In this document: positions 15,229 through 38,685 of the stretch, piece by piece
Numbering within the stretch: position 1 is the stretch's first letter
Layout: each line of letters starts with the position of its first letter
Virus record (IMG/VR): IMGVR_UViG_3300047399_000093
Coordinates: 1 to 38,685 of that record
DNA length: 38,685 bases
Direction: 5' to 3' (one strand)
From: a virus
Lineage: Duplodnaviria > Caudoviricetes
The notes under the pieces: model-generated
The model's input: only the letters and a program-made list of their open reading frames with translations
What the model was told of the DNA's origin: nothing
Database searches by the model: none
Position numbers and translations under genes: made by a program

Positions 15229-17145
15229 TCAGTCCCAGAACGACGACCTGGCGGCCGCCTGCGGCGATGCTTGATCCTCGTCATCATCCCGCGTCGCTGG
15301 CGCCGGCTGGGCCCGCTCAGCTCCGCCGGCCGCCTCGACGTCCCATCGCTCGTCGCTCCACCGATCCGCGCCAACCAGGGCCGCGGCCGTACGCGCATAG
15401 ACCCTGCAGTCGAGCGCCTCGTTCCGGGGCCGCGTCTTGATCCACTCGAACCTGTTGTAGCCACGCCGGTCCACCGTGTTCGTCAGCCGCTCGGCGCACA
15501 GCTGCCGGAACCACTCCTCGCCATACTGCGGGAAGTGGCACCAGCCGTGCGGCAGGCCCTCTCCCTCATCCGGCAGTGGCCGCCGCAGCCAGCCATAGAG
15601 CTCTGACTTCGCGGTGCCGGTGCCCACCGGCCACACCTTCACGCCGCCGCGCAGCGCCTTGCCGTTCCGCAGCACCTCCACCCGGCCCGGGGTGCCGATG
15701 ATCGCCGTCTGGCTCTCCTGGCCCTTGATCGCGATCACCCGCATACCGGCCTGGCCACGCACCCAGCGGTAGACCTCCTGGCTCCTGAAGCCTGAGTCGA
15801 TCGCCGTCATCCTGATCGGCAGCCGCTGCCCGTCGCCCCGGCCAAACTCCGACCGCACGAACAGCGACAGCTCGCGCCACACCGCCGGCTGCGCCGTGTC
15901 GCCCGCCAGCACCTGGTAGTCCAGGCTCCAGCTCTCCATGCCGCGCCCCCAGCCCACCACCTCCAGCTCGATGCGATCCATCTGCACGTCGATGCCGCAG
16001 GTGAGGAACACCACCGGATCGGGCACCGTGCCCAGCTCATAGGCCTCGCGGCGGTTGTAGAGCGCTTCCCAGTCCGGCGCCTCGCCGTCGTCGTTCCAGC
16101 ATTCCGCCAGCACCGTGTTGGTCCATGGCTTCAGCTCCGCCGGGTTGTCCTTCGCCTTCTCGTAGCCGACCACCGCATCGGTCCAGCTGAACCATCCCAG
16201 CGGCGCATAGAGCGCCGAGCAGTGGTAGCCCTGCACGCTCCGCTCTGGGAACGTCGCCTCCCACCAGTCGTCGCTGAACACCTCCGGGTCATACCACCAG
16301 GCCTTCGTGTCCTCCTCGATCCCTTCGCCGCACTCCTCGCAGATCAGCACCGGCGCGGTCCGCAGCGTGTTCGGCAGGCCCGGGTCCTTCGGGTCGTACC
16401 GGATCCGGTCCCACACGATCGCCTGCCGGTGCTTGCAGTGAGGGCAGGGCAGCAGCAGGTGCTGCTGGTTGCTGTCCTCCCACTTCGACCAGATCGCGCT
16501 GCGACCCGCGATCGTCGGCGTCGATGTCCAGGCCTGCTTCTTCCGCACGCCGAACGTCCGGGTGCGGGCCGTCACGATCGCCAGCGGGCTTCCTTCCTCG
16601 TCGACGTCGCTGGGCCAGCGGTCGATCTCATCCCCGCCCAGGTAGCGGATCGGCATCGATGCCAGGCCGCTCGCCGCGTTCGCCCCGCCAAGGATCAGGA
16701 AGCCCCCGGTGAACTCCTTCATCAGCTGCGTGTTGCCGCTGTCCCGCTCCCGCGGCGCCTTCACCTTCTCCTGCAGGCTCGGGCTCGCCTCGATCATCGG
16801 GGCGATGCGCATCTTGCTGTAGCGCTTCGCCAGGTCGATCGTCGGCTGCACGAACAGCGCCGGCCCTGGCGCGATGTCCATCGTGTAGCCGGTCCAGTTG
16901 TTCAGCGCCTCGCTCTTGCCCATCTGCGAGCCAAACACCAGCACCACCTCCTGCACCGTGCTGGTGGCCGAAAGGTCGTTCATGGCCTTGCGGAGATAAG
17001 GGGTCCTCGCCGTTCTCCACGGACCGTGCTCACTCGAGGCCTTCGGGCTCAGGATCCGCCGTTGGTCCGCCCACTCGCTGACCGTCAGCAGCGGGTCAGG
17101 CTCCAGCCCCCGTCTGAACGCACGCCGGCACTCCTCAATCAGCAT
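15229..17145 (-). CDS. Terminase large subunit, lambda GpA family
   Basis: TVSEWAD..R, TPY, SQMGKSE (Walker A), LASMPIRYL.GDEIDR (Walker B), STPT, CPHC, GIDVQ.DR, RNEALDC.VY. Confidence 0.97.
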   Translation of the reverse strand: MLIEECRRAFRRGLEPDPLLTVSEWADQRRILSPKASSEHGPWRTARTPYLRKAMNDLSATSTVQEVVLVFGSQMGKSEALNNWTGYTMDIAPGPALFVQPTIDLAKRYSKMRIAPMIEASPSLQEKVKAPRERDSGNTQLMKEFTGGFLILGGANAASGLASMPIRYLGGDEIDRWPSDVDEEGSPLAIVTARTRTFGVRKKQAWTSTPTIAGRSAIWSKWEDSNQQHLLLPCPHCKHRQAIVWDRIRYDPKDPGLPNTLRTAPVLICEECGEGIEEDTKAWWYDPEVFSDDWWEATFPERSVQGYHCSALYAPLGWFSWTDAVVGYEKAKDNPAELKPWTNTVLAECWNDDGEAPDWEALYNRREAYELGTVPDPVVFLTCGIDVQMDRIELEVVGWGRGMESWSLDYQVLAGDTAQPAVWRELSLFVRSEFGRGDGQRLPIRMTAIDSGFRSQEVYRWVRGQAGMRVIAIKGQESQTAIIGTPGRVEVLRNGKALRGGVKVWPVGTGTAKSELYGWLRRPLPDEGEGLPHGWCHFPQYGEEWFRQLCAERLTNTVDRRGYNRFEWIKTRPRNEALDCRVYARTAAALVGADRWSDERWDVEAAGGAERAQPAPATRDDDEDQASPQAAARSSFWD

Positions 17146-17695
17146 CAGCCGCCAATCCCTCAAGGGCCTTCACCAGATGGCGCTCCAGCACCAGCAGCAC
17201 CTCCGCCCGCTGCTCCGGGGTGAGCCCCCCGGCGGCCCGCGCAATGTCGCCGATCATCAGCTGCGGCGTCCGCCGCAACGAGTCCCGCACCCGCCGGCCC
17301 TCCTCGAACCACACGCGCTCCACATCCGCCTTCGGCACCAGCAGGGCCTGGCGCTCTTTCAGGTCGAGCTCCAGCAGCTTCGCCTGGTAGAGCGTCCGCA
17401 GCGCCTGCGCCTGCGCGTGACTCGGCGCCTTCGCCATCACATCCGGCGCCCCACCACCGCCAAGTGGTGGCTGCCGCTGCTCGATCTCCCGCGCACGCTC
17501 CGCCGCGGCGCCACGCTGCTTCGCCGGTGACGTGTTCCGGGCCCACTCCTGGTCAGCGATCTCCGGGTCGATCTGCCAGCGCCGCTTCCCTGCCTGCACC
17601 GCACCCTTCACGATGCGGCCGTCAGCGATCGCCTTCCGCACCGCCCGACCCGTCACGCCGCGCTGCTCGGCGTACTCGTCAGGGGAGATCAGCAC
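17135..17695 (-). CDS. Terminase small subunit (Nu1-like)
   Basis: N-terminal HTH (EYAEQRGVTGRAVRKAIADGRI), coiled coil YQAKLLELDLKER..LVPKADVE; immediately upstream of TerL. Confidence 0.85.
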   Translation of the reverse strand: MLISPDEYAEQRGVTGRAVRKAIADGRIVKGAVQAGKRRWQIDPEIADQEWARNTSPAKQRGAAAERAREIEQRQPPLGGGGAPDVMAKAPSHAQAQALRTLYQAKLLELDLKERQALLVPKADVERVWFEEGRRVRDSLRRTPQLMIGDIARAAGGLTPEQRAEVLLVLERHLVKALEGLAADAD

Positions 17696-17967
17696 AGCTC
17701 AACGAAGAAGCCTTGCTCCGCCAGCTTCCGGCCCACACCAGGCGGGAACGGACGCATCAGCTGGATCGGTGTGTCGGTCCCGGTCATCCCGCGCACCAGC
17801 GTCACCAGCTGGTCAACCAGCATCACCGTGTGGCCGCGGCCCTCCAGCATCTCCTCGACCGTCACCTCGGGGCCCACCGCGCCGAACCGAATGCGCATCG
17901 GCCAGGCCCTCACGTGACCGTCGGGGCCCCACTGGCAGCCATAGGCGATCTGCGCCACCTCAATCAT
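17689..17967 (-). CDS. Hypothetical protein, possible degenerate QueE-like fragment lacking the Fe-S motif
   Basis: MIEVAQIAYGCQWGPDGHVRAWPMRIRFG loosely mirrors the QueE N-terminus (I.EIF.SIQGEG...FIRF.GC); no CxxxCxxC. Confidence 0.45.
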   Translation of the reverse strand: MIEVAQIAYGCQWGPDGHVRAWPMRIRFGAVGPEVTVEEMLEGRGHTVMLVDQLVTLVRGMTGTDTPIQLMRPFPPGVGRKLAEQGFFVELC

Positions 17968-18340
17968 CGAACCCAGCAACGAACGGCCTCGTGCAGGTTG
18001 CAGGTGCATCCTGCCAGGGCATGCGCACCCTGGTGCCGCGCGTCGCCTTCATCACCGACGGCCCGCAGCACGTCATGCTCACCCATGACCACAGCTCACC
18101 GATCTCCGCCCGCAGGTAGCGCGGCGCTCCCTCGAGGACGCCATAGACCAGCAGGCCGCCGGCTCGCGGCCGCTCCGTCACCTCCAGACCCAGGCGGTCT
18201 GCCAGCGCCCAGGCCAGCAGCTTGCCGCCGCGGTCCATCCCACACACGCCCGTCAGATCACGCCGGCACTGTGCAGCGATCAGATCCACCGCCGCATCGA
18301 AGCCCGGCCAGGTCAAGGAGAGGGTTGGGGGAGTGTCCAT
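17960..18340 (-). CDS. Degenerate type I phosphoribosyltransferase-like protein
   Basis: LTWPGFDAAVDLIA...GVCGMDRGGKLLAWALADRLGL and C-terminal VRMPWQ match Gpt-like PRTases; the PRPP loop (VDD..DTG) reads LVYGVLEGA. Confidence 0.65.
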   Translation of the reverse strand: MDTPPTLSLTWPGFDAAVDLIAAQCRRDLTGVCGMDRGGKLLAWALADRLGLEVTERPRAGGLLVYGVLEGAPRYLRAEIGELWSWVSMTCCGPSVMKATRGTRVRMPWQDAPATCTRPFVAGFDD

Positions 18341-18363
18341 GTCAGGTCACACCCCCAACTCGA

Positions 18364-18537
18364 TCAGCGACCGTTCTTGGTGAACCTGGGAGCGTAGCTT
18401 GAAGGCAGACTGGTTGACTTGAATCGCTTGTTGGCCTGCTGCATCTGATAGCGGGCCTTGGCCTTGCGCCCAGCAGCCACACTTGACCCGCCGGATGCCC
18501 GGCCACTCCCCTTACGGCCTCCGCCACTGCCGGCCAT
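18364..18537 (-). CDS. 57-aa basic Gly/Ser/Lys/Arg-rich peptide (not in the ORF track)
   Basis: MAGSGGGRKGSGRASGGSSVAAGRKAKARYQMQQANKRFKSTSLPSSYAPRFTKNGR*; AGAGGAG RBS 7 nt upstream; TAGAGT -10-like box at 18565-18570. Confidence 0.75.
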   Translation of the reverse strand: MAGSGGGRKGSGRASGGSSVAAGRKAKARYQMQQANKRFKSTSLPSSYAPRFTKNGR

Positions 18538-18567
18538 TCGATTGCTCCTCTGGTCGCCGCCATGACT

Positions 18568-19821
18568 CTAAGCCAGATCTGGAGTCTCGGCGAACGTCTG
18601 CCGCCAGCCCTGCCGGCGGTAGACCATCAACCGATCTCCGTTGTCATCAAGCAGCGGAATGATCTTGTCATTTTCGACCACGCACGCATGCGCGAACCTA
18701 CTGAAGCTCGTTGGGCCCAGGCTCTTGCAGAACAAGTCGTCGTTCCACATGATCCGCCAGAAGCCCTCGACGTCCTGCTTTGGCAGCCGGCCATCCGGCA
18801 GCGGCTTCACGATCGCCCGGTAATGTTTCGCCCGCTTGTGCCGCAGCGGTTCTGACCAATCGAGTTCGGGCAGCGGCGCCAGGATCGACTGTGCCTCCGC
18901 TCGGGTGACGACCAGGCAATCATTCTCGTCGGCAGCCTGCAGGTGTGGATCAAGCTCGTTGATCAACTGGTGCCAGTACGGCATCGGCCGCTCGTAGACC
19001 TCATGCCACGGCTTGAAGAACCTGGTGGGCGCCTCATACGACGTCGAGAACACCTGCAGCCCGATGCCCTGCGCATAGACCAGCGCCGCATCTCCATGGG
19101 CGATGTCGCTCTTGCTGCCCTTCTCTCCACGCGCTCGGATGAAATCCTCCCCCAGCCGATCCCGTGCCTTCTTACTCAGATTGCCCTTGAAGCTCTTGCT
19201 GAAGTACGGCACCTCGATCCACACGCCCCACACGCCCTTCGCCTTCAACAGATCAAGCAGCGGCTCGAACTGCGGCATCCACTCGGCTGTCAGCGGATTC
19301 ACTCCCACCGTCACCACATGCCCGGCCTCAATCAGCTGATCAACCAGCTCCAGCCGGCTCCCGATGCTCGGCGCATGGGGCTCCACTCGCCGCCGCACCT
19401 CGTCATCGAGCATCGGGATGCTCACGTACCAGACGGCCCGGGGCGTCTCGCGAATGATCCGCTCCTGGATCCGCAGGTGCGCCTTGTGCGCTCCCCGCGT
19501 CTGCCACGTCAGCGGGATGCCCAGCTCCACGCACAGCTCCCAAATCGGCTCAAACTGCACCGCGTTGGTGCCAGCCAACGGGTCCACATGATTGCTCACC
19601 AGCATCGGCACCCGCGCCTGCATCAGCCGCGCTTCACGGCTTCGCCGCTGATGGTGCTCCGAGAGCAGGCCCACGATTCCCCGAATGTCTGCCCGCCGGT
19701 CCGGCTTAAACAGGTTCGCGAAGCAGTACGTGCAGGCATGCCCACACCAGTTCATGCTCAGCTCCAGTCCGGCGGGACTGGTAAGGAACTCCCCCGCGTA
19801 GGCCCGGATCCCATCACCCAT
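18568..19821 (-). CDS. Radical SAM enzyme (spore photoproduct lyase-like branch)
   Basis: CGHACTYC (CxxxCxxC) near the N-terminus, VSNHVDPL, VSIPMLDDEVRRRVEPHAPSIGSRL. Confidence 0.88.
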   Translation of the reverse strand: MGDGIRAYAGEFLTSPAGLELSMNWCGHACTYCFANLFKPDRRADIRGIVGLLSEHHQRRSREARLMQARVPMLVSNHVDPLAGTNAVQFEPIWELCVELGIPLTWQTRGAHKAHLRIQERIIRETPRAVWYVSIPMLDDEVRRRVEPHAPSIGSRLELVDQLIEAGHVVTVGVNPLTAEWMPQFEPLLDLLKAKGVWGVWIEVPYFSKSFKGNLSKKARDRLGEDFIRARGEKGSKSDIAHGDAALVYAQGIGLQVFSTSYEAPTRFFKPWHEVYERPMPYWHQLINELDPHLQAADENDCLVVTRAEAQSILAPLPELDWSEPLRHKRAKHYRAIVKPLPDGRLPKQDVEGFWRIMWNDDLFCKSLGPTSFSRFAHACVVENDKIIPLLDDNGDRLMVYRRQGWRQTFAETPDLA

Positions 19822-20425
19822 GGCGCACCTCCCCGAGGAAGTCGCCGACCAATTTCCAGAACGCAGTCTTGTCCTTGCTGTAGCCCAACTCCGCTTTCGC
19901 TTTGCGCCACTGCACCATCTCCTCCGGTGTGAGCACGATCGCCAGGGCCACCCCGCGGTCGATCACATCGTCGCCGCTGTCATCTTCATCCTCGGCGCCG
20001 TCGAACTCACCACCAAGCAGCTTGCTCAGCTCGTCGACATCGAAGCCCAGCAGGTCCACGTCGAAGCCGCCGACCTGGAGCGCTTCCACCTCGGCCTCAA
20101 GGATGCTCAGATCCCAGCCGGACTGCAGCGCCAGCTGATTGTCCGCGATGACGTAGGCACGGCGCTGCGCTTCCGTGAGGTGGCCCAGCACGATCACCGG
20201 CACCTCGGGCAGGCCCAGCTTCTGGGCTGCCGCCAGCCGGCAGTGACCGGCGATCAGCACGCCGTCCGCATCGACCAGCAGGGGGCTGGTGAAGCCGAAC
20301 TCCAGGATGCTCGCGGCCACCGCATCGACCTGCGATGCCGTGTGGGTCCTGGCGTTCCGGCTGTACTTCCGCAGCCGCTCCGTTGGCCAGCGCTCAACCT
20401 TCTCGGGGATGTGGGGGGTTGTCAT
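19814..20425 (-). CDS. ParB/Srx-like N-terminal domain protein
   Basis: RNARTH..Q...ASILEFGFTSPLLVD...AGHCRL.AA..LGL..VPV...QRRAYVIADN. Confidence 0.92.
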   Translation of the reverse strand: MTTPHIPEKVERWPTERLRKYSRNARTHTASQVDAVAASILEFGFTSPLLVDADGVLIAGHCRLAAAQKLGLPEVPVIVLGHLTEAQRRAYVIADNQLALQSGWDLSILEAEVEALQVGGFDVDLLGFDVDELSKLLGGEFDGAEDEDDSGDDVIDRGVALAIVLTPEEMVQWRKAKAELGYSKDKTAFWKLVGDFLGEVRHG

Positions 20426-20444
20426 GGCGCAAAGGGTAGGACCG

Positions 20445-20963
20445 TCACCCCTTCCCCGGCACCCAGGCCCGGTTCAGCCCGCGGCCACGGCCCACCTGCG
20501 CCGGCATCCCCGCGCGGTTCACTAGCCGCTGCACCTCCTCGCGCTCCATCCCAAGGCGCTTCTGGATCGTGCGCTCTGGCACGCCCTCATCCACCATCCG
20601 CCGCACGATGTCCGCCATCCGCAGCACCGCATGCGTGCCCCGGGCTCGGTTGTGCCTGATCGTGCTCATCATCCGGTGCACCGGATCCAGACGCACCTGC
20701 ACAGTAGGCACCAGGCCGCCTGTCAGGCCAGCCACCCTCTGGTCCGTGCTCACCGTCCAGCGGTGGAAGCCATCAACGATCACGAACTTCCCGTCCGCCT
20801 CCGGCAGTGTCACGATCGGACAGGTCCACCCGTCTTCGAGGATGCTCACGATCAGCAGCTCCAGCTCGGGCGGCGCCACGTGGTTCGGGTTGTAGGCGTT
20901 GCCCACCAGGCGGTCGCGCGGCAGCCACCGCACCCGCGACACCGGCTGCTCATCCACGCTCAC
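20445..20963 (-). CDS. ibrB: IbrB/YbdM-like ParB domain protein
   Basis: GTG start overlapping the ibrA-like stop; NAYNPNHVAPPELELL..SI.EDGWTCPIV, IVDGFHR, STIRHNRARGTH, LGMEREEV.RL. Confidence 0.88.
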   Translation of the reverse strand: MSVDEQPVSRVRWLPRDRLVGNAYNPNHVAPPELELLIVSILEDGWTCPIVTLPEADGKFVIVDGFHRWTVSTDQRVAGLTGGLVPTVQVRLDPVHRMMSTIRHNRARGTHAVLRMADIVRRMVDEGVPERTIQKRLGMEREEVQRLVNRAGMPAQVGRGRGLNRAWVPGKG

Positions 20964-22132
20964 CGCTTCACCTCCAGCGCCTTCACCTGCTCGAACGTCA
21001 GGCCCTTCCGCGCCGCTGCCGTGATCGCACGCTGAATCAGCTGCCCCTTCTTCCGGCCCTTCAGGTCGCCGCGGCTCACCATCTGGCACACGTACCGCCA
21101 GCTCAGGCCCGTCATCACGTCGTCCTCCTCCTCGGGGATCGGCCGCGCTGTCTTCTTCCGGTGCATCCGCACCACCTGGGCCACACTCCGCGCGATCTCC
21201 GCACGCTCCTTGGCCGGGTAGAGCTCCAGCAGGCTCATCGCCCAGTCCTTCCAGCTCATCCCCGCCGGCGGCTCCTTCAGCTTCGCCCCATAGAGGTCCG
21301 TCCTGGCGTATCGGCCCGCCGTGTTCACGCCCTCCACGCGCCGCAGCATCCGGTCCCACAGCTCTGGCCAGCCCTCCGGATACTTCCACAACCCACCCAG
21401 CGGCTCCTCGCCGAACGGCGGTGTCACCCGCTGCACCCCGACACTCGTCCCCATCAGGGCCTGCACGTCATAGGCCCGGTTGTAGTCCCAGCCCTCGCGC
21501 GCCGCGGCCACCCACACATCCTCCGCACGCCAGTCGTAGATCGGCTTGCAGTTCGTGTAGTACCCCTGGCGCGGCTCCGCGATGTAGTTGTCGCGCTCCT
21601 TCTTCGTCACGGTCTGCAGCCGCCGCGGACTCTCCTGCGCGCGGATCCCCGTCAGGTCTGCCACCGTCCCGCACTCCGGCCCGAACAGCACCGGGCCCAC
21701 ATCGTCGAGCTGCATCCCCATCCGAAACCGCGGCACGTCCCGCAGCGTCACCACACCCGCCGGCATCGGCCGCACCCACCGGTCGCGCGCCGCCTCGTCC
21801 CAGCAGTTCCACCACGGCTGGTTCCTCGCGCACGCATTCCTGTGCCGGATCGGCAGGCAGCACCACAGCAGCCGCACATCCTCACGGCCACGCACCCGCT
21901 CCACATACTCGACCGTCTCGGGGTAGATCGCTTCCTCGTCCACGAAGTAGACGTCCAGCGGCAGCCGGCCCCGCTCGCGCGCCACCTGGGCCGTCAGGTT
22001 CAGCACCACCGTGCTGTCCTTCCCGCCGCTGAAGCTCACCACCACCCGATCGAACAGGTCGTAGATCCGCCGCACCCTTCCCAGCGCCGCGGCCATCACG
22101 TCCTGCTCCACCTCCACCTTGCGGAGGGTCAT
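20960..22132 (-). CDS. ibrA: IbrA/YbdN-like PP-loop (PAPS reductase family, DUF3440) protein
   Basis: SFSGGKDS PP-loop, WCCLP..RNA, W.CWD, GIRAQES.RR, PIYDW..EDVW, YNRAYD, QRV.PPFG. Confidence 0.92.
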   Translation of the reverse strand: MTLRKVEVEQDVMAAALGRVRRIYDLFDRVVVSFSGGKDSTVVLNLTAQVARERGRLPLDVYFVDEEAIYPETVEYVERVRGREDVRLLWCCLPIRHRNACARNQPWWNCWDEAARDRWVRPMPAGVVTLRDVPRFRMGMQLDDVGPVLFGPECGTVADLTGIRAQESPRRLQTVTKKERDNYIAEPRQGYYTNCKPIYDWRAEDVWVAAAREGWDYNRAYDVQALMGTSVGVQRVTPPFGEEPLGGLWKYPEGWPELWDRMLRRVEGVNTAGRYARTDLYGAKLKEPPAGMSWKDWAMSLLELYPAKERAEIARSVAQVVRMHRKKTARPIPEEEDDVMTGLSWRYVCQMVSRGDLKGRKKGQLIQRAITAAARKGLTFEQVKALEVKR

Positions 22133-22860
22133 CGCGTCCTGAACTCCGCCCGCTCCGGCGCCGCCGCGCTCACCCCCTCGATGATCGTCCTCGTCAGCAT
22201 CGGGTGCTGCTCATCCGTCGGCCCGCAGTCCGAGTCCGGGTGCCACGCCACCACCACCATGCTCTCGTCCGGCTCCGTCCTGAACCGGTGCTCGCCGTCC
22301 GCATGGATCACGAACACCATCCCTGGCAGCAGCGGCTGGCGGCCCTCGCGCGTCACGCACTGCCCACGGCCGCGCAGCACCACGCCAATCCGCACGCTCG
22401 GGTGCGTGTGCATCGTCTGCTCCGTGCCGCCCGGGAACCACAGCCCGTTCAGGCATGGATCCCCCAGCTTCACCGGCGGCACCAGCAGCGTGTCCGTGCA
22501 GCCGTCGATGTACCGCAACCGGCCCTGGGCCTCCACCGGCCCGCCCACCGCGAACATCCCGCGCCATCCGGCCTGAGTGATCACGATCCCCTCCGGCAGG
22601 CCATCAGGATCCCGCACCGGATAGACCGCTGCCTTCCCCGGCACCGACGCATACATGCCCGGCCGCAGCCGGTACCGGTCGCCCTCCCACGGCTCGACCC
22701 ACAGGCCGCCATGGATGCAGAACACGAACGACGTCGCCGCCTCCTCGCCCTGCAGCAGCTGCCCGCCACTCAGCAGCCCGTAGACCCGCGTGCCGCTCCC
22801 CTCCAGATCCAGCAGGAGGCAACTCCGCAGCTTCAGTCCCTCAAACGCCCGATCGACCAT
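22129..22860 (-). CDS. Cupin (bicupin-like) domain protein
   Basis: QTMHTHPSVRIGVVLRGRG...L.PGMVFVIHADGEHRF metal-binding cupin motifs; a second degenerate cupin lies at the N-terminus. Confidence 0.85.
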   Translation of the reverse strand: MVDRAFEGLKLRSCLLLDLEGSGTRVYGLLSGGQLLQGEEAATSFVFCIHGGLWVEPWEGDRYRLRPGMYASVPGKAAVYPVRDPDGLPEGIVITQAGWRGMFAVGGPVEAQGRLRYIDGCTDTLLVPPVKLGDPCLNGLWFPGGTEQTMHTHPSVRIGVVLRGRGQCVTREGRQPLLPGMVFVIHADGEHRFRTEPDESMVVVAWHPDSDCGPTDEQHPMLTRTIIEGVSAAAPERAEFRTR

Positions 22861-23572
22861 CCATCCATTCCCTGCAGATTGCCACCAACGCCTCCGGTGT
22901 GCCCTCCAGGCCCCACCGCTCCTTCGCCATTCGCACCGCGGCCAGCAGCGACTCCCGGTCATCCCACAGCAGGTTCACGCTGAAGACGTGCCGCTCCTCC
23001 ACCTCGCCGCTCTCGGCCGTGGCGTCCGCATCGTCGTCGTCCTCACCGGCGGGCCCCAGGCCCAGGGCCTCCTGCCGCTCTGGTTCCACCCGTTCAGTCC
23101 CGGCCGCTGCCGCCACGCCCTCGAACGATCCCAGGTCCAGATCATCCTGCAGCCGCGCCAGCGCATCGTCGCTCCAGCCCAGCGCATCAAGGTCGAAGTC
23201 CTCCACCCGCAGCGCTTCGAGCTCCGCCTGCAGCACGCTCATGTCCCACCCGGCGTTCTCTGCCAGGCGGTTGTCTGCGATCACATAGGCCCGCCGCTGC
23301 TCAGGCGTCAGGTGGTCGAGCACCACCACCGGCACCTGGGCCAGCCCGAGCCGGCGCGCGGCCTCCAGGCGCCCATGGCCGGCCAGGATCCCGTCCTGCC
23401 CATCCACCAGGATCGGCGCCGTGAAGCCGAACTCCTGCAGGCTCGCCACCAGCTGGCGCAGCTGCTGCTCGGAATGGGTGCGTGCGTTGCGCTCGAATGG
23501 CTTCAGCCGCTCCAGCGGCCATAGCTCCAATCGTGACGCCATCGTCGGCGCCTGGCTCTTGCGTTTCGTCAT
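22841..23572 (-). CDS. ParB/Srx-like N-terminal domain protein (paralogue of 19814-20425)
   Basis: RNARTHS..Q...ASLQEFGFTAPILVD...AGHGRL.AA..LGL..VPV...QRRAYVIADN. Confidence 0.92.
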   Translation of the reverse strand: MTKRKSQAPTMASRLELWPLERLKPFERNARTHSEQQLRQLVASLQEFGFTAPILVDGQDGILAGHGRLEAARRLGLAQVPVVVLDHLTPEQRRAYVIADNRLAENAGWDMSVLQAELEALRVEDFDLDALGWSDDALARLQDDLDLGSFEGVAAAAGTERVEPERQEALGLGPAGEDDDDADATAESGEVEERHVFSVNLLWDDRESLLAAVRMAKERWGLEGTPEALVAICREWMDGRSGV

Positions 23573-23659
23573 GGCGTCATCAGACCACAGCAGGGCCAGT
23601 GGCGGAACCTGACGGAACATCCTCCGGCTTCCGGCGTGATCAGAAAACGGCGGATTTTT

Positions 23660-23912
23660 AGTTGAGAATCCCGGCTTACTATTGAGAAATCCAGTTGCCG
23701 CAATGGATTTCGGGGAAGCAGTCGAAACAAGCTCTGGCTCTCAGCAATGCAGCCACTATTGAGAAACCCAGTCATAGCAAGGGATTTGGAACCCAGATTA
23801 GAACCTGGCTCTAGCCGAAATTTGGGGCATGGATGCGCGCAGTGGGTTTTCCACAGGAGGAACCAAGGGGGTGCCGGAGGGGGTACTGGAAGTTCCGATC
23901 GAAGTTCCGATC
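23660..23912 (-). other. Putative cos/packaging initiation region
   Basis: Non-coding, AT-richer gap upstream of the ParB-terminase operon; cosQ-like GGTTCCT on the minus strand at 23858-23864; direct repeats ACTATTGAGAAAYCCAGT (23678, 23755) and GAAGTTCCGATC x2 (23889-23912). Confidence 0.55.
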
Positions 23913-23999
23913 AGAGGAGCGCCAGCTGACCGACGTGGGCGTGGTGCTTGCCGAGGGTAGTGAGGATGAAGCGCCAGCGTGCGTGAACAGGTCATGTGA

Positions 24000-24620
24000 T
24001 CAGCGCGCTCCGCCAAAGCCCCTGTCAATGGCGCCCAGCTTGCGAAGAATGCCTGTTTCCAGTCGCTCCCGAACACGCTGCTCGACAGCTGCCTGAATGC
24101 GGTCCTTGTGCTTTCCTCCTAGGTAGATGGAGGCCACAGATAGGCCAAAGACAAACTGCATGCCTTGACGGGGCTTGCGGCGCTTTTCTCGGTTGTTGTC
24201 ATACATGTAAGAACGGTTGAGAGCAGGCTTAAAGGCCAGCTTGCCTCTGCCTCCTTGAGCTCTAACGGTTTGGAGGTAGCCGGAACGAATCAAAGTCCGC
24301 TCGCCTTTATATATAGCAAGAATCAACCCCTTTTTTGTTGAACGTGGCTTGAATCGGTTAGCAGAAACGGGTTTGGTGCTTGCTTCAATAATTGCCGTCA
24401 ATTCTTTGACGGTTACAAAAAGGTCATCCTTGATTCGCTGTGATGGGATGGGGACGCCAGCGGCTTTGAGCTCTCGTGCCATGACGGTCTTCCCGGATCT
24501 GGCGGCGTAACCGACGCCATATGCGATGGCTCTTGGGATGTCGTTGCTCGAAAGCCTGGAGAGCATCTGAGCCAGCTTGGTGTCCCCAGTGATCTGAGCG
24601 CTGATGTCGATGCGTGCCAT
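24000..24620 (-). CDS. Lambda gpZ-like minor tail/tail completion protein
   Basis: Basic 206-aa protein (IPRAIAYGVGYAARSGKT...RIKDDL...FGLSVASI); CAGGAG RBS; position before cos as in lambda-like prophages. Confidence 0.6.
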   Translation of the reverse strand: MARIDISAQITGDTKLAQMLSRLSSNDIPRAIAYGVGYAARSGKTVMARELKAAGVPIPSQRIKDDLFVTVKELTAIIEASTKPVSANRFKPRSTKKGLILAIYKGERTLIRSGYLQTVRAQGGRGKLAFKPALNRSYMYDNNREKRRKPRQGMQFVFGLSVASIYLGGKHKDRIQAAVEQRVRERLETGILRKLGAIDRGFGGAR

Positions 24621-36365: not shown

Positions 36366-36542
36366 CCCCTTGTGGCGCCTGGCTTTTTGCCCGGCGCCTT
36401 ACTTGATCTTGGTTCACATCAACAGGCATCCTTTCCTATCCTCCGGCATCCTCGGAGCCCGGATTTCTGCGGCTGGACATTCCTCCCGGCACCCGGTACA
36501 TCACCCCGAATCCTCCTGTTCTTTGGGAACGCTGTGGGAACG
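36325..36542. other. attP-like site (paired integrase arm-type repeats)
   Basis: GTGGGAACG-TC-GTGGGAACG at 36325-36344 and TGGGAACG-CT-GTGGGAACG at 36524-36542 bracket an AT-richer core directly 5' of the integrase. Confidence 0.65.
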
Positions 36543-37709
36543 ACGAAGCTCACGAAGACCCTGGTGGAGGGCGCCGCACCCCGCGCGCGCCGCTTTCGCC
36601 TCAACGACTCCCTGGTGCCCGGCCTCTCCCTCCTGGTGCTGCCGACCGGTGCCCGCACCTACTACCTGCGCCACCGCGTCGACGGCCGCCAGCGCGACCT
36701 GAAGCTGGGCTCGCCGGTCGAGCTGTCGCCCGACGATGCCCGGCGGCTGGCGCGTGATGCGCTGGCCCGCGTGCGCGAGGGTGGCGACCCGATGGAGGAG
36801 CGCCGGCAGCGGCGCGAGGCGCCCACCGGGCAGGAGCTCTACGAGCGCCACCGGCTCGCCCGCCAGGCCCGCCCGGGTTGGGTCACGGAGGAGCACATCT
36901 GGCGCGGCCACCTGCTGCCGGCGTTCGGCTCGGTGCAGGTGCACCGGATCACCACCGCGATGGTCCAGGAGTGGTACGACCGATCGGGCCGGCGCCCCGT
37001 CGCCCGCGCGGCGGTGCTGCAGCTGGGCCGGGCCCTGCGGCTGAGCGAGCGCTGGGGCTGGTGGCCCGAGGGCCGGGCGCCGCGGCCGTGCGCTGGCGTG
37101 GAGCTCGACGCCAAGGTGGCCCGCGAGCGGTACCTGAGCCCCGAGGAGCTGGCCCGCCTGCGGGCGGCGCTGCAGGACTGGGAGCGGGAGGGCATGGGGG
37201 TGCGGTGGCGGTTCTGCCAGCTGATCCGGCTGCTGCTGCTCACCGGCTGCAGGTTGCGCGAGATCCTGCACGCCCGCTGGGCCTGGGTGGACTGGGCCGG
37301 TGGCCGGCTGATCGTGCCGGCCGAGCACCACAAGACGGGCAGGCGGACGGGCAGGGCCAGGCGGGTGCTGCTGGTGCCCAGGGCGGTTGAGATCCTGGAG
37401 CAGCTGCGGGAGCGGCATCCGCGCGATGGCGGGGAGTGGGTGATCGCCGGGGGCAGGCCGGGCCAGCCGATGGGTGGGTATCACTCGCTGTGGTGCGAGC
37501 TGCGGGACCAGGTGGGGCTGGAGGACTTCCGGCCGCATGACCTGAGGCACAGCTTCGCGTCGTACGCCCTGAGCGCGGGCCACGGCCTCGATGTGATCGG
37601 GCAGCTGCTGGGGCACAGCAGCGTGCAAAGCACGCGCAGGTACGCCCATTTGACCGAGACGGCGGCGCGACTGGCGGTGGCCAAGATCGAGCGTGAGGTG
37701 GATCTGTGA
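36534..37709 (+). CDS. int: Tyrosine integrase with arm-binding (DUF4102-type) domain
   Basis: KLTKTLVE...D..VPGLSL.V..TG.RTY; catalytic TGCR..EI, HK, HDLRHSFAS, LLGHSS..ST.RYAH; start probably the GTG at 36534 rather than 36372. Confidence 0.95.
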   Translation: MGTTKLTKTLVEGAAPRARRFRLNDSLVPGLSLLVLPTGARTYYLRHRVDGRQRDLKLGSPVELSPDDARRLARDALARVREGGDPMEERRQRREAPTGQELYERHRLARQARPGWVTEEHIWRGHLLPAFGSVQVHRITTAMVQEWYDRSGRRPVARAAVLQLGRALRLSERWGWWPEGRAPRPCAGVELDAKVARERYLSPEELARLRAALQDWEREGMGVRWRFCQLIRLLLLTGCRLREILHARWAWVDWAGGRLIVPAEHHKTGRRTGRARRVLLVPRAVEILEQLRERHPRDGGEWVIAGGRPGQPMGGYHSLWCELRDQVGLEDFRPHDLRHSFASYALSAGHGLDVIGQLLGHSSVQSTRRYAHLTETAARLAVAKIEREVDL

Positions 37710-38037
37710 CGGATTGTTACGGTATCCACTGGCCGGGACAGGCCAGCCCGTAGTGTTGGCTCACGCCCCGAGAGGGGCACCTACGCAGCTCGCTGCACCG
37801 CAGCGCCGATCCGCGCTCTGCTACTCAAATCTCAGCTGCTCATCGCACTACACCGGGGGCCTCACCCGAGGCCCCACAACTCACCACTGAGCCCCTCGGC
37901 TCTCTGGTGAGCTGATGTCCACCATCCGCGCCTCGCGGTGCCGCGCACTACGGAACTGCGCCCGCCGTCGCGACGCGTCGCATCGCACCGGCCCCCTCCC
38001 CGGAGGGGGCATCCAACCATCACCACCCATCCCAGCC

Positions 38038-38295
38038 ATGTCCATCGCAGCAGCCCAGCAACGCCTTCTCGAAGCCCAGGTCGAGCTCGCGCACCTCAAG
38101 GTCCAGCAGCTGGCCCGTGAGGCTGGCCGCGAGATGCGTGACGCCATGCACCGCGTTGCGTGGGAGGCCGTGCCCGAGATCAGCGACATGCTCGGCGGCC
38201 TGGCACCCATGCAGCGGGTGCTGATCAAGTCGATCCTGCGCCGCCGCATCGACGAGCAGCTGACCGCCCTGGCTGCCGGCGACCCCAATCTGTAG
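38038..38295 (+). CDS. Truncated paralogue of the terminase small subunit (C-terminal domain only)
   Basis: EAGREMRDAMHR...GGLAPMQR...LTALA aligns ungapped to TerS EEGRRVRDSLRR...GGLTPEQR...LEGLA (18 of 52 residues identical by hand). Confidence 0.7.
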   Translation: MSIAAAQQRLLEAQVELAHLKVQQLAREAGREMRDAMHRVAWEAVPEISDMLGGLAPMQRVLIKSILRRRIDEQLTALAAGDPNL

Positions 38296-38304
38296 CGCCA
38301 GGGC

Positions 38305-38685
38305 ACACTTATCACCCAGATCGCTTGCGCCGCAGGCGATGTCTTATTACGAACGCCTGAGAATGGCCGATTGTGAACGGATGTAACGCACGCGAGTGTG
38401 ACACCTGTGGAAACCGATTTTTCCCCAGGTACACCCGTACCAGTTCCGCCAGATCCCTTGCGCCGCAATGTATCTCGGCGGTAGGACGCTCGTACCACTC
38501 GGCGCAATTCGGTATCACCGCGATACCAACCCGGCCGGGCCTTGTGCCAGTTGGGGCCGATCCCGTGTGCGCCGGCTGTACCAGTTCGTGCTGATAGTGC
38601 CACTTGTTGACCGGCACACGCGCCGCCAGATCCCTTGCGCCGCAGTCGATCTGGCCGATTCTGGTACGCCCGTATCACCCACCCC
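38305..38685. repeat. Non-coding repeat-rich region
   Basis: AGATC(C/G)CTTGCGCCGCA at 38318, 38451 and 38628; GTACCAGTTC x2; TATCACC x3. Confidence 0.75.

Follow-up and report, generated by a model that had tools for sequence, protein, structure and literature searches.

The window, that is, the whole 38,685-nt stretch of DNA analyzed here, is a linear virus record that is 89% complete. Its minus strand carries the genes of a lambda-type terminase, portal, capsid, and baseplate, and its plus strand an arm that runs from recombination genes to an integrase. Synechococcus phages gave the closest hits to the dCTP deaminase, and the primase shares 62.5% identity with its counterpart in Synechococcus phage S-LBS1; the sequencing run that matched best is a freshwater metagenome, possibly the source of the record. 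A picocyanobacterial host is therefore likely. The plus-strand arm includes a tyrosine integrase gene at positions 36540 to 37709 (+; start approximate) and, downstream of it, an 85-aa ORF at 38038 to 38295 (+; ATG at 38038, TAG at 38293-38295), which is described below as a headless paralogue of the small terminase subunit (TerS).

The parent family is represented in the window by a full-length lambda-Nu1-type terS at 17135 to 17695 (−; phrog_57, E value of 1.4e-23). The gene that follows it directly, at 15229 to 17163 (−), is a GpA-type terL, whose N-terminus would be the binding target in the mechanism discussed below. In the TerS model, a linker joins an Xis/Nu1-like head to three long helices, and the model matched the DNA-binding domain of lambda Nu1 (7lwr, 1j9i) with weak E values; a sequence search found no solved structure matching this TerS family, and the fold search met its N-terminal domain only. 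The headless gene also occurs in a second phage, G003, a 100% complete genome of 51.3 kb; about 27 kb of it can be aligned with the window, and its TerS is 83% identical. Both carriers encode a full terS.

In the window, the stretch from the likely cos region to terS contains a block at 17960 to 23620 (−) with three ParB-like genes and genes for PAPS-reductase-like, radical SAM, cupin, and phosphoribosyltransferase-like proteins, which probably serves DNA modification and is much shorter in G003. The linear ends of G003 map to the equivalent of window positions 23650 to 24000, and several related contigs end 2 to 2.6 kb upstream of terS, which suggests a genome terminus upstream of the ParB-like gene.

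Homology of the ORF to the C-terminus of TerS

Residues 27 to 80 of the ORF pair with residues 130 to 183 of the window's TerS. The initial annotation had claimed an ungapped alignment to the TerS C-terminus over 52 residues, and homology without gaps was confirmed by BLASTP (20/59 identities, ungapped, E value of 1e-7). The similarity was significant against shuffled controls, with a local alignment score of 88 compared with shuffle maxima of 71 and 65 (0/5000 as high in each direction). When the ORF was compared with all 544 six-frame segments from the window, TerS was its top non-self match, and the runner-up scored 43. Profile-profile alignment with HHalign gave a probability of 94.9% across 54 columns, and an HMM built from TerS C-termini only, with the ORF not included, placed the ORF and its homologue at the top of the non-TerS frames among 19,575, at E values that were weak (0.004 and 0.05, respectively). 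These comparisons establish homology between the 85-aa ORF and the last ~55 residues of lambda-Nu1-type TerS. The match had been presented as one to the phage's own TerS; the homology held, but identity over the core of the ORF was 16 to 21/54 to every TerS of the clade, the window's own included, and 6 to 10 of 48 to 49 to distant TerS.

An HMM of the TerS N-terminus found no HTH inside the ORF and no HTH remnant upstream of it, in agreement with the earlier description of the ORF as lacking this domain. The 20-kb distance from terS and the opposite orientation had also been given correctly; from terL, the headless gene is separated by 20 kb in the window and about 31 kb in G003, on opposite strands in both.

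The predicted model of the ORF, for which the input alignment contained TerS rows, was a helical hairpin with helices at residues 3 to 51 and 57 to 79 (pLDDT 92). According to this model, the hairpin is equal to the last two helices of TerS plus a fused N-terminal extension. L119, V125, and P144 were invariant in the 15 TerS compared, and both the G-x-L-V turn and Pro144 were absent from all three headless proteins known from the searches below. The residues kept in 3/3 headless proteins included the R-D motif of the TerS family and a clade-specific G-G-L loop. The net charge of the ORF was zero. A fold search with the model returned nothing at an E value of ≤0.001 and generic hairpins only, and its Atlas matches are leads only. 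Family scans with the 85-aa ORF gave no hits in PHROGs (including phrog_57) or PADLOC and a bAvd-like Pfam match far under the cutoff. A longer reading of 126 aa, starting at 37915, did match phrog_57 (E value of 0.001), but this start was rejected because the extension has noncoding codon use, overlaps a pentamer unit, and is not shared.

Coding status, relatives, and origin of the headless gene

Among 1.84 billion representatives, the search returned two true relatives and one repeat-protein artifact. P0002 (81 aa) is 62% identical to the ORF, shares its start Met, and is encoded in G003 on the strand opposite to terS; P0003 (66 aa) is 64% identical and is without the first 20 residues. Profile searches found no relatives beyond these two, and searches of GenBank phages and GTDB contigs gave no match to the ORF. 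Comparison of the ORF with the P0002 gene gave a pN of 0.23, a pS of 0.47, and a dN/dS of 0.37, with pN equal to or above pS in 2/1000 bootstraps, and the codon use of the ORF was like that of the phage's genes. The reading-frame constraint and the phage-like codon use therefore indicate selection. For the TerS C-terminus in the same two phages (window and G003), dN/dS was 0.05. On these sequence measures, the ORF is a real gene under purifying selection, with a constraint much looser than that on the parent TerS C-terminus. A decayed relic of a full terS was ruled out by the dN/dS of 0.37 together with the lack of an HTH remnant.

The gene is rare, being known from three sequences and occurring in 1/25 vipr-like loci (G003) and 1/26 loci with the downstream element described below. 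A second TerS-like copy was present in one of 50 related records that were searched over their full length; these records, 13 of them at least 90% complete, were part of the set retrieved. Eighteen short TerS-like proteins were considered as candidates for further headless lineages; they look like ordinary TerS C-halves and were probably cut or mis-started.

In trees made from subsets of 140 C-terminal segments (28 once near-duplicates had been removed, and then 17), the three headless proteins formed a single clade that was either sister to the TerS clade of this phage group or nested in it, with support of 97/97 in the 17-row core tree and 100/99 in the 28-row tree. The headless branch was long (1.5 to 3.3 changes per column), so the placement is less sure than these support values imply. 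The AU test rejected a pairing of the ORF with the TerS encoded in the window (P value of 2e-5), so that the earlier view of the gene as a copy of this terS is not supported in the sense of a recent duplication. The phylogeny indicates that the headless gene is an old paralogue with a single origin and not a fresh copy of the terS in the same genome.

Promoter-like motif and guide-like units upstream of the ORF

Right after the integrase stop, at 37706 to 37756 (+), there is a promoter-like motif of two GTNAC repeats 10 nt apart followed by a TAGNGT box. The repeats resemble the RpaB HLR1 site. The tight form of the motif, which was defined post hoc, recurred in G001 (twice), G002, G003, and G004 and in 0/200 shuffles; the loose form was not significant against shuffles, and a sigma-70 scan found no promoter. 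GTNAC motifs occur in the window at 37706, 29482, and 27644, and in the same places in G001, G003, and G004. We infer that the motif at 37706 is the start of a transcript comprising the array and the ORF, separate from that of the integrase.

Two vrRNA-like units follow on the plus strand. Unit 1 (37784 to 37875) has 14 nnC-NN pentamers and a G+C hairpin (fold z of −3.6), and unit 2 (37924 to 38010) has 13 pentamers and a G+C hairpin (fold z of −3.7) and ends 27 nt before the ATG of the ORF. No such pentamer tracts were seen in 20 shuffled windows, and an Rfam scan gave no match. Units of CGC/NN pentamers with a G+C hairpin were located ~30 nt before the headless ATG in both carriers (window and G003/L052). 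The G003 homologue starts 35 nt past the last of five pentamer units that flank a pair of genes encoding 209 and 167 aa. The assembly graph (run X1) branches just upstream of the ORF, at window positions 37906 to 38009, with a variant of unit 2 that has 8 differences, which suggests that co-occurring phages join the ORF to different guides.

The arrangement in G003 resembles the VIPR systems, which have a vipr gene with an accessory gene, units of ~100 nt with pentamers and a 3′ hairpin, and matches to competitors that skip 1 nt (10.64898/2026.04.26.720920). G003 has a vipr-like gene and an accessory gene, flanking pentamer units with 3′ hairpins, and 1-nt-skip matches. The scaffold is CGC/NN here and GGY/NN there, but the available text of that report mentions YNNNG scaffold variants, under which the CGC scaffold may fall and thus be already covered. 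Unlike the published systems, the window (89% complete) has no vipr gene and keeps two units, and the accessory genes that the available text describes do not include a TerS-derived one (10.64898/2026.04.26.720920).

The 209-aa protein of G003 was assigned as a probable vipr homologue through its sequence relatives. It had 26% identity (E value of 5e-10) to a protein trailed by five canonical GGY/NN tracts, and it matched 129 phage records, including Escherichia, Shigella, and Citrobacter (Moogle) phages. Among 25 loci with close relatives of this protein, CGC tracts were found in 21, GGY tracts in none, and the headless gene in G003 only. This CGC/NN VIPR-like clade of freshwater phages is seen at window positions 37784 to 38010, at L052 8241 to 9955, and in L101 to L125. 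In the window and in G002, the units come right behind an integrase, and the available sequence contains no vipr gene; in G003, the VIPR-like locus occupies the slot where relatives have a tyrosine integrase.

One G003 guide gave a 1-nt-skip match to the catalytic motif of related integrases at 9/12 dinucleotides and one G002 guide at 8 consecutive dinucleotides; 0/200 shuffles reached either in an integrase-only test of 11 guides that was set up once these two matches had been seen. Two independent guides, at L052 8241 to 8300 and L002 11252 to 11326, decode to the antisense of the catalytic motif in tyrosine integrases of related phages (L001, L080, and L003). Over 45 guides, a skip of 1 gave 3 matches at ≥75% (one of them short), and skips of 0 and 2 gave 0/45. 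Further 1-nt-skip matches joined L104 3757 to 3816 with L109 near 3647 (9 in a row) and L110 150 to 219 with L052 near 5670 (10/14); one of these targets is beside another VIPR-like locus and one is in a G003 region common to the plus-strand arm of the window. The window's own two guides had no convincing target, with none for unit 2. An exact 9-dinucleotide match of a window guide did not extend and was judged due to chance, and a 6-dinucleotide run in the L001 integrase (2/200 shuffles, one of 22 tests) is a hint only.

The integrase and the downstream element

The headless gene had been placed next to the integrase. The two are indeed neighbors in the window, but a gap of 328 nt lies between them, filled by the motif and the two repeat units. 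The implied connection with the integrase and lysogeny was not supported by the second carrier: G003, which is 100% complete, carries the headless gene and has no relative of the window integrase, which is therefore a neighbor here and not a conserved partner.

Downstream of the ORF, a conserved noncoding element of ~390 bp (38291 to 38680) contains three imperfect palindromes, with a terminator-like hairpin at 38320 to 38340. It also carries GGTAC-N4-GTAYC boxes, which we take to resemble the cyanobacterial LexA box, and one inverted pair that is presumably similar to DnaA boxes. In at least 26 viral contigs, the plus-strand arm ends with the element, which was found at 26 viral loci behind many different genes. 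The L001 integrase, 88% identical to that of the window, has its stop directly before the element, and in L095, the element is directly preceded by an integrase that has lost a large internal part and is fused to an ORF upstream. The element was considered as an attP, a reading left unsupported because 9/26 loci have an integrase in the 2.5 kb upstream and G003 has the element without one. A cos site is not favored either because the linear ends of G003 map elsewhere, upstream of the ParB-like gene. The element is more likely an origin or regulatory hub than attP or cos. The headless ORF in front of it is accessory cargo in a variable slot that holds many unrelated accessory genes.

Discussion

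The reading that we favor, at somewhat less than even confidence, is that the ORF is a TerS-derived decoy directed against the terminases of rival, related phages. The C-terminal hairpin of the group's small terminase would have been turned into an accessory gene, which would be cotranscribed with the guide units from the motif at 37706. Lambda TerS binds TerL through its C-terminal part, and the two subunits assemble as a TerL1:TerS2 protomer (PMC6739421, PMC9611059); an excess of TerS inhibits packaging in T4, SPP1, and E217 (PMC9611059). By analogy with lambda, the ORF product may bind the N-terminus of TerL or the hairpin of TerS. It would then either compete for the TerS site on TerL or form a mixed TerS dimer with one head, leaving the terminase blind to cos. 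The motor of the rival would thereby not be loaded on the rival's DNA, and the range of targets would be close relatives. Sequestration of TerL is probably at least as likely as poisoning of TerS oligomers because the segment that was kept is the one that binds TerL in lambda, and the turn and Pro were lost.

The TerS C-termini were 42 to 54/54 identical across the group and the TerL N-termini were also much alike, so that one decoy could hit many relatives. The same likeness argues against a decoy, since it should also hit the carrier's own terminase, and no antidote gene and no carrier-specific change in TerS or TerL was found among the carriers and noncarriers compared. With terminases this similar and no antidote, it must be assumed that the carrier's own packaging would be spared through timing or dose. 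The binding surface may also have changed, as the headless branch is long and the TerS C-termini are nearly frozen.

A delay of the phage's own packaging could be achieved if the ORF kept its own TerL inactive early and were outcompeted once TerS accumulated. The ORF shares its strand with the recombination and nucleotide genes, the late arm being on the other strand, and no terminase matches it better than the phage's own. We regard such self-timing as very unlikely, however, since the close relatives G004 and G005, with near-identical terminases and one TerS-like match each, are without the headless gene, and terS and terL are expressed together. The position of the ORF at the 3′ end of an anticompetitor guide array likewise favors rival phages as the target. 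Since the slot holds many unrelated genes, however, this closeness of ORF and array is documented by two genomes, which probably go back to one transfer event. Doubtful, in our estimation, is the further proposal of a two-layer antirival cassette, mobile even without vipr, in which guides would silence the integrase genes of competitors and the decoy would block their terminase.

That the product has been co-opted for a new partner unrelated to packaging, or is mainly hitchhiking with the array, we consider unlikely. The long branch, the loss of Pro and of the G-x-L-V turn, the weaker constraint (0.37 versus 0.05), the hypervariable slot, and the absence of the first 20 residues from P0003 would all fit such a passenger, but the R-D motif and G-G-L loop kept in all three proteins suggest that the ancestral surface is still used. 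Less expected still would be a sponge for inhibitors or sensors that recognize TerS (TerI-, Ppi-, or Rpp-like, from prophage, satellite, or host), which would shield the carrier's packaging. TerS-binding inhibitors exist, and a shield requires no self-avoidance and suits a conflict cassette with a patchy distribution; on the other hand, with about 35% identity to TerS, the ORF product would mimic it poorly toward a third-party binder, the half of TerS to which Rpp binds is the N-terminal one (PMC6739421), absent from the ORF, and no such inhibitor was identified in these hosts. RcGTA gp1, a functional TerS without an HTH (PMC6854486), provides the precedent for a second TerS that would lack sequence specificity and let TerL package non-cos DNA, with more transduction. 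This is improbable for the ORF, given that gp1 is the sole TerS of its element, adjoins terL, and needs its first helix (PMC6854486), whereas the first helix of the ORF is shortened or absent, its net charge is zero, and its gene is 20 kb from terL.

Among known systems, the headless ORF resembles gpNu1-type TerS (phrog_57, relatives of DUF1441/PF07278) in sequence and in the predicted fold of the last two helices; it differs in lacking the winged HTH, the G-x-L-V turn, and the conserved Pro and in being away from terL and alongside a full terS. The proposed decoy would work like Ppi, Gpi, or TerI of Listeria prophage 10403S, the last of which is a small phage protein with its own promoter and a proposed block of rival packaging via the terminase (10.1101/2025.02.27.640495). 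TerI alone has two self-immunity genes and shown binding to TerS, and it is not described as a TerS homologue in the available text (10.1101/2025.02.27.640495); the neighborhoods of the two carriers (window, 89% complete, and G003) had no gene in common, and no immunity gene was found in them. PICI Rpp, SaPI Ppi and Ccm, and PLE Gpi also interfere with packaging via TerS or TerL, and Rpp and Ccm, like the proposed decoy, act by resemblance to the phage protein that they disturb (PMC6739421, PMC5052747, 10.1101/2024.04.22.590561). As far as these sources describe them, all four are satellite genes, whereas the headless gene is in an autonomous phage with terminase, portal, capsid, and baseplate, and Rpp mimics the DNA-binding half of TerS and redirects packaging, whereas the headless ORF keeps the opposite half (PMC6739421). 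RcGTA gp1 shares the natural lack of the N-terminal DNA-binding domain but is the sole essential TerS beside terL, and the headless ORF is an extra, shorter paralogue (PMC6854486). The headless ORF is neither a TerS proper, nor a satellite inhibitor, nor a GTA-type TerS. Among the titles listed in a literature search, subscription journals aside, none pointed to an autonomous phage with a headless TerS paralogue.

The gene plausibly represents a real, rare form of packaging interference, with the mechanism as proposed above. The weight of the finding is limited by its rarity, at three sequences. The known terminase inhibitors, as described in the available sources, are satellite-borne or not described as terminase homologues. 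If the proposal is true, a TerS fragment beside a full terS would mean that phages derive assembly inhibitors from their own structural genes through truncation, and the headless ORF would be a minimal probe of the TerS-TerL contact in lambda-type terminases. The link to a CGC-type VIPR array also offers a case in which conflict between phages in freshwater picocyanobacteria can be tested.
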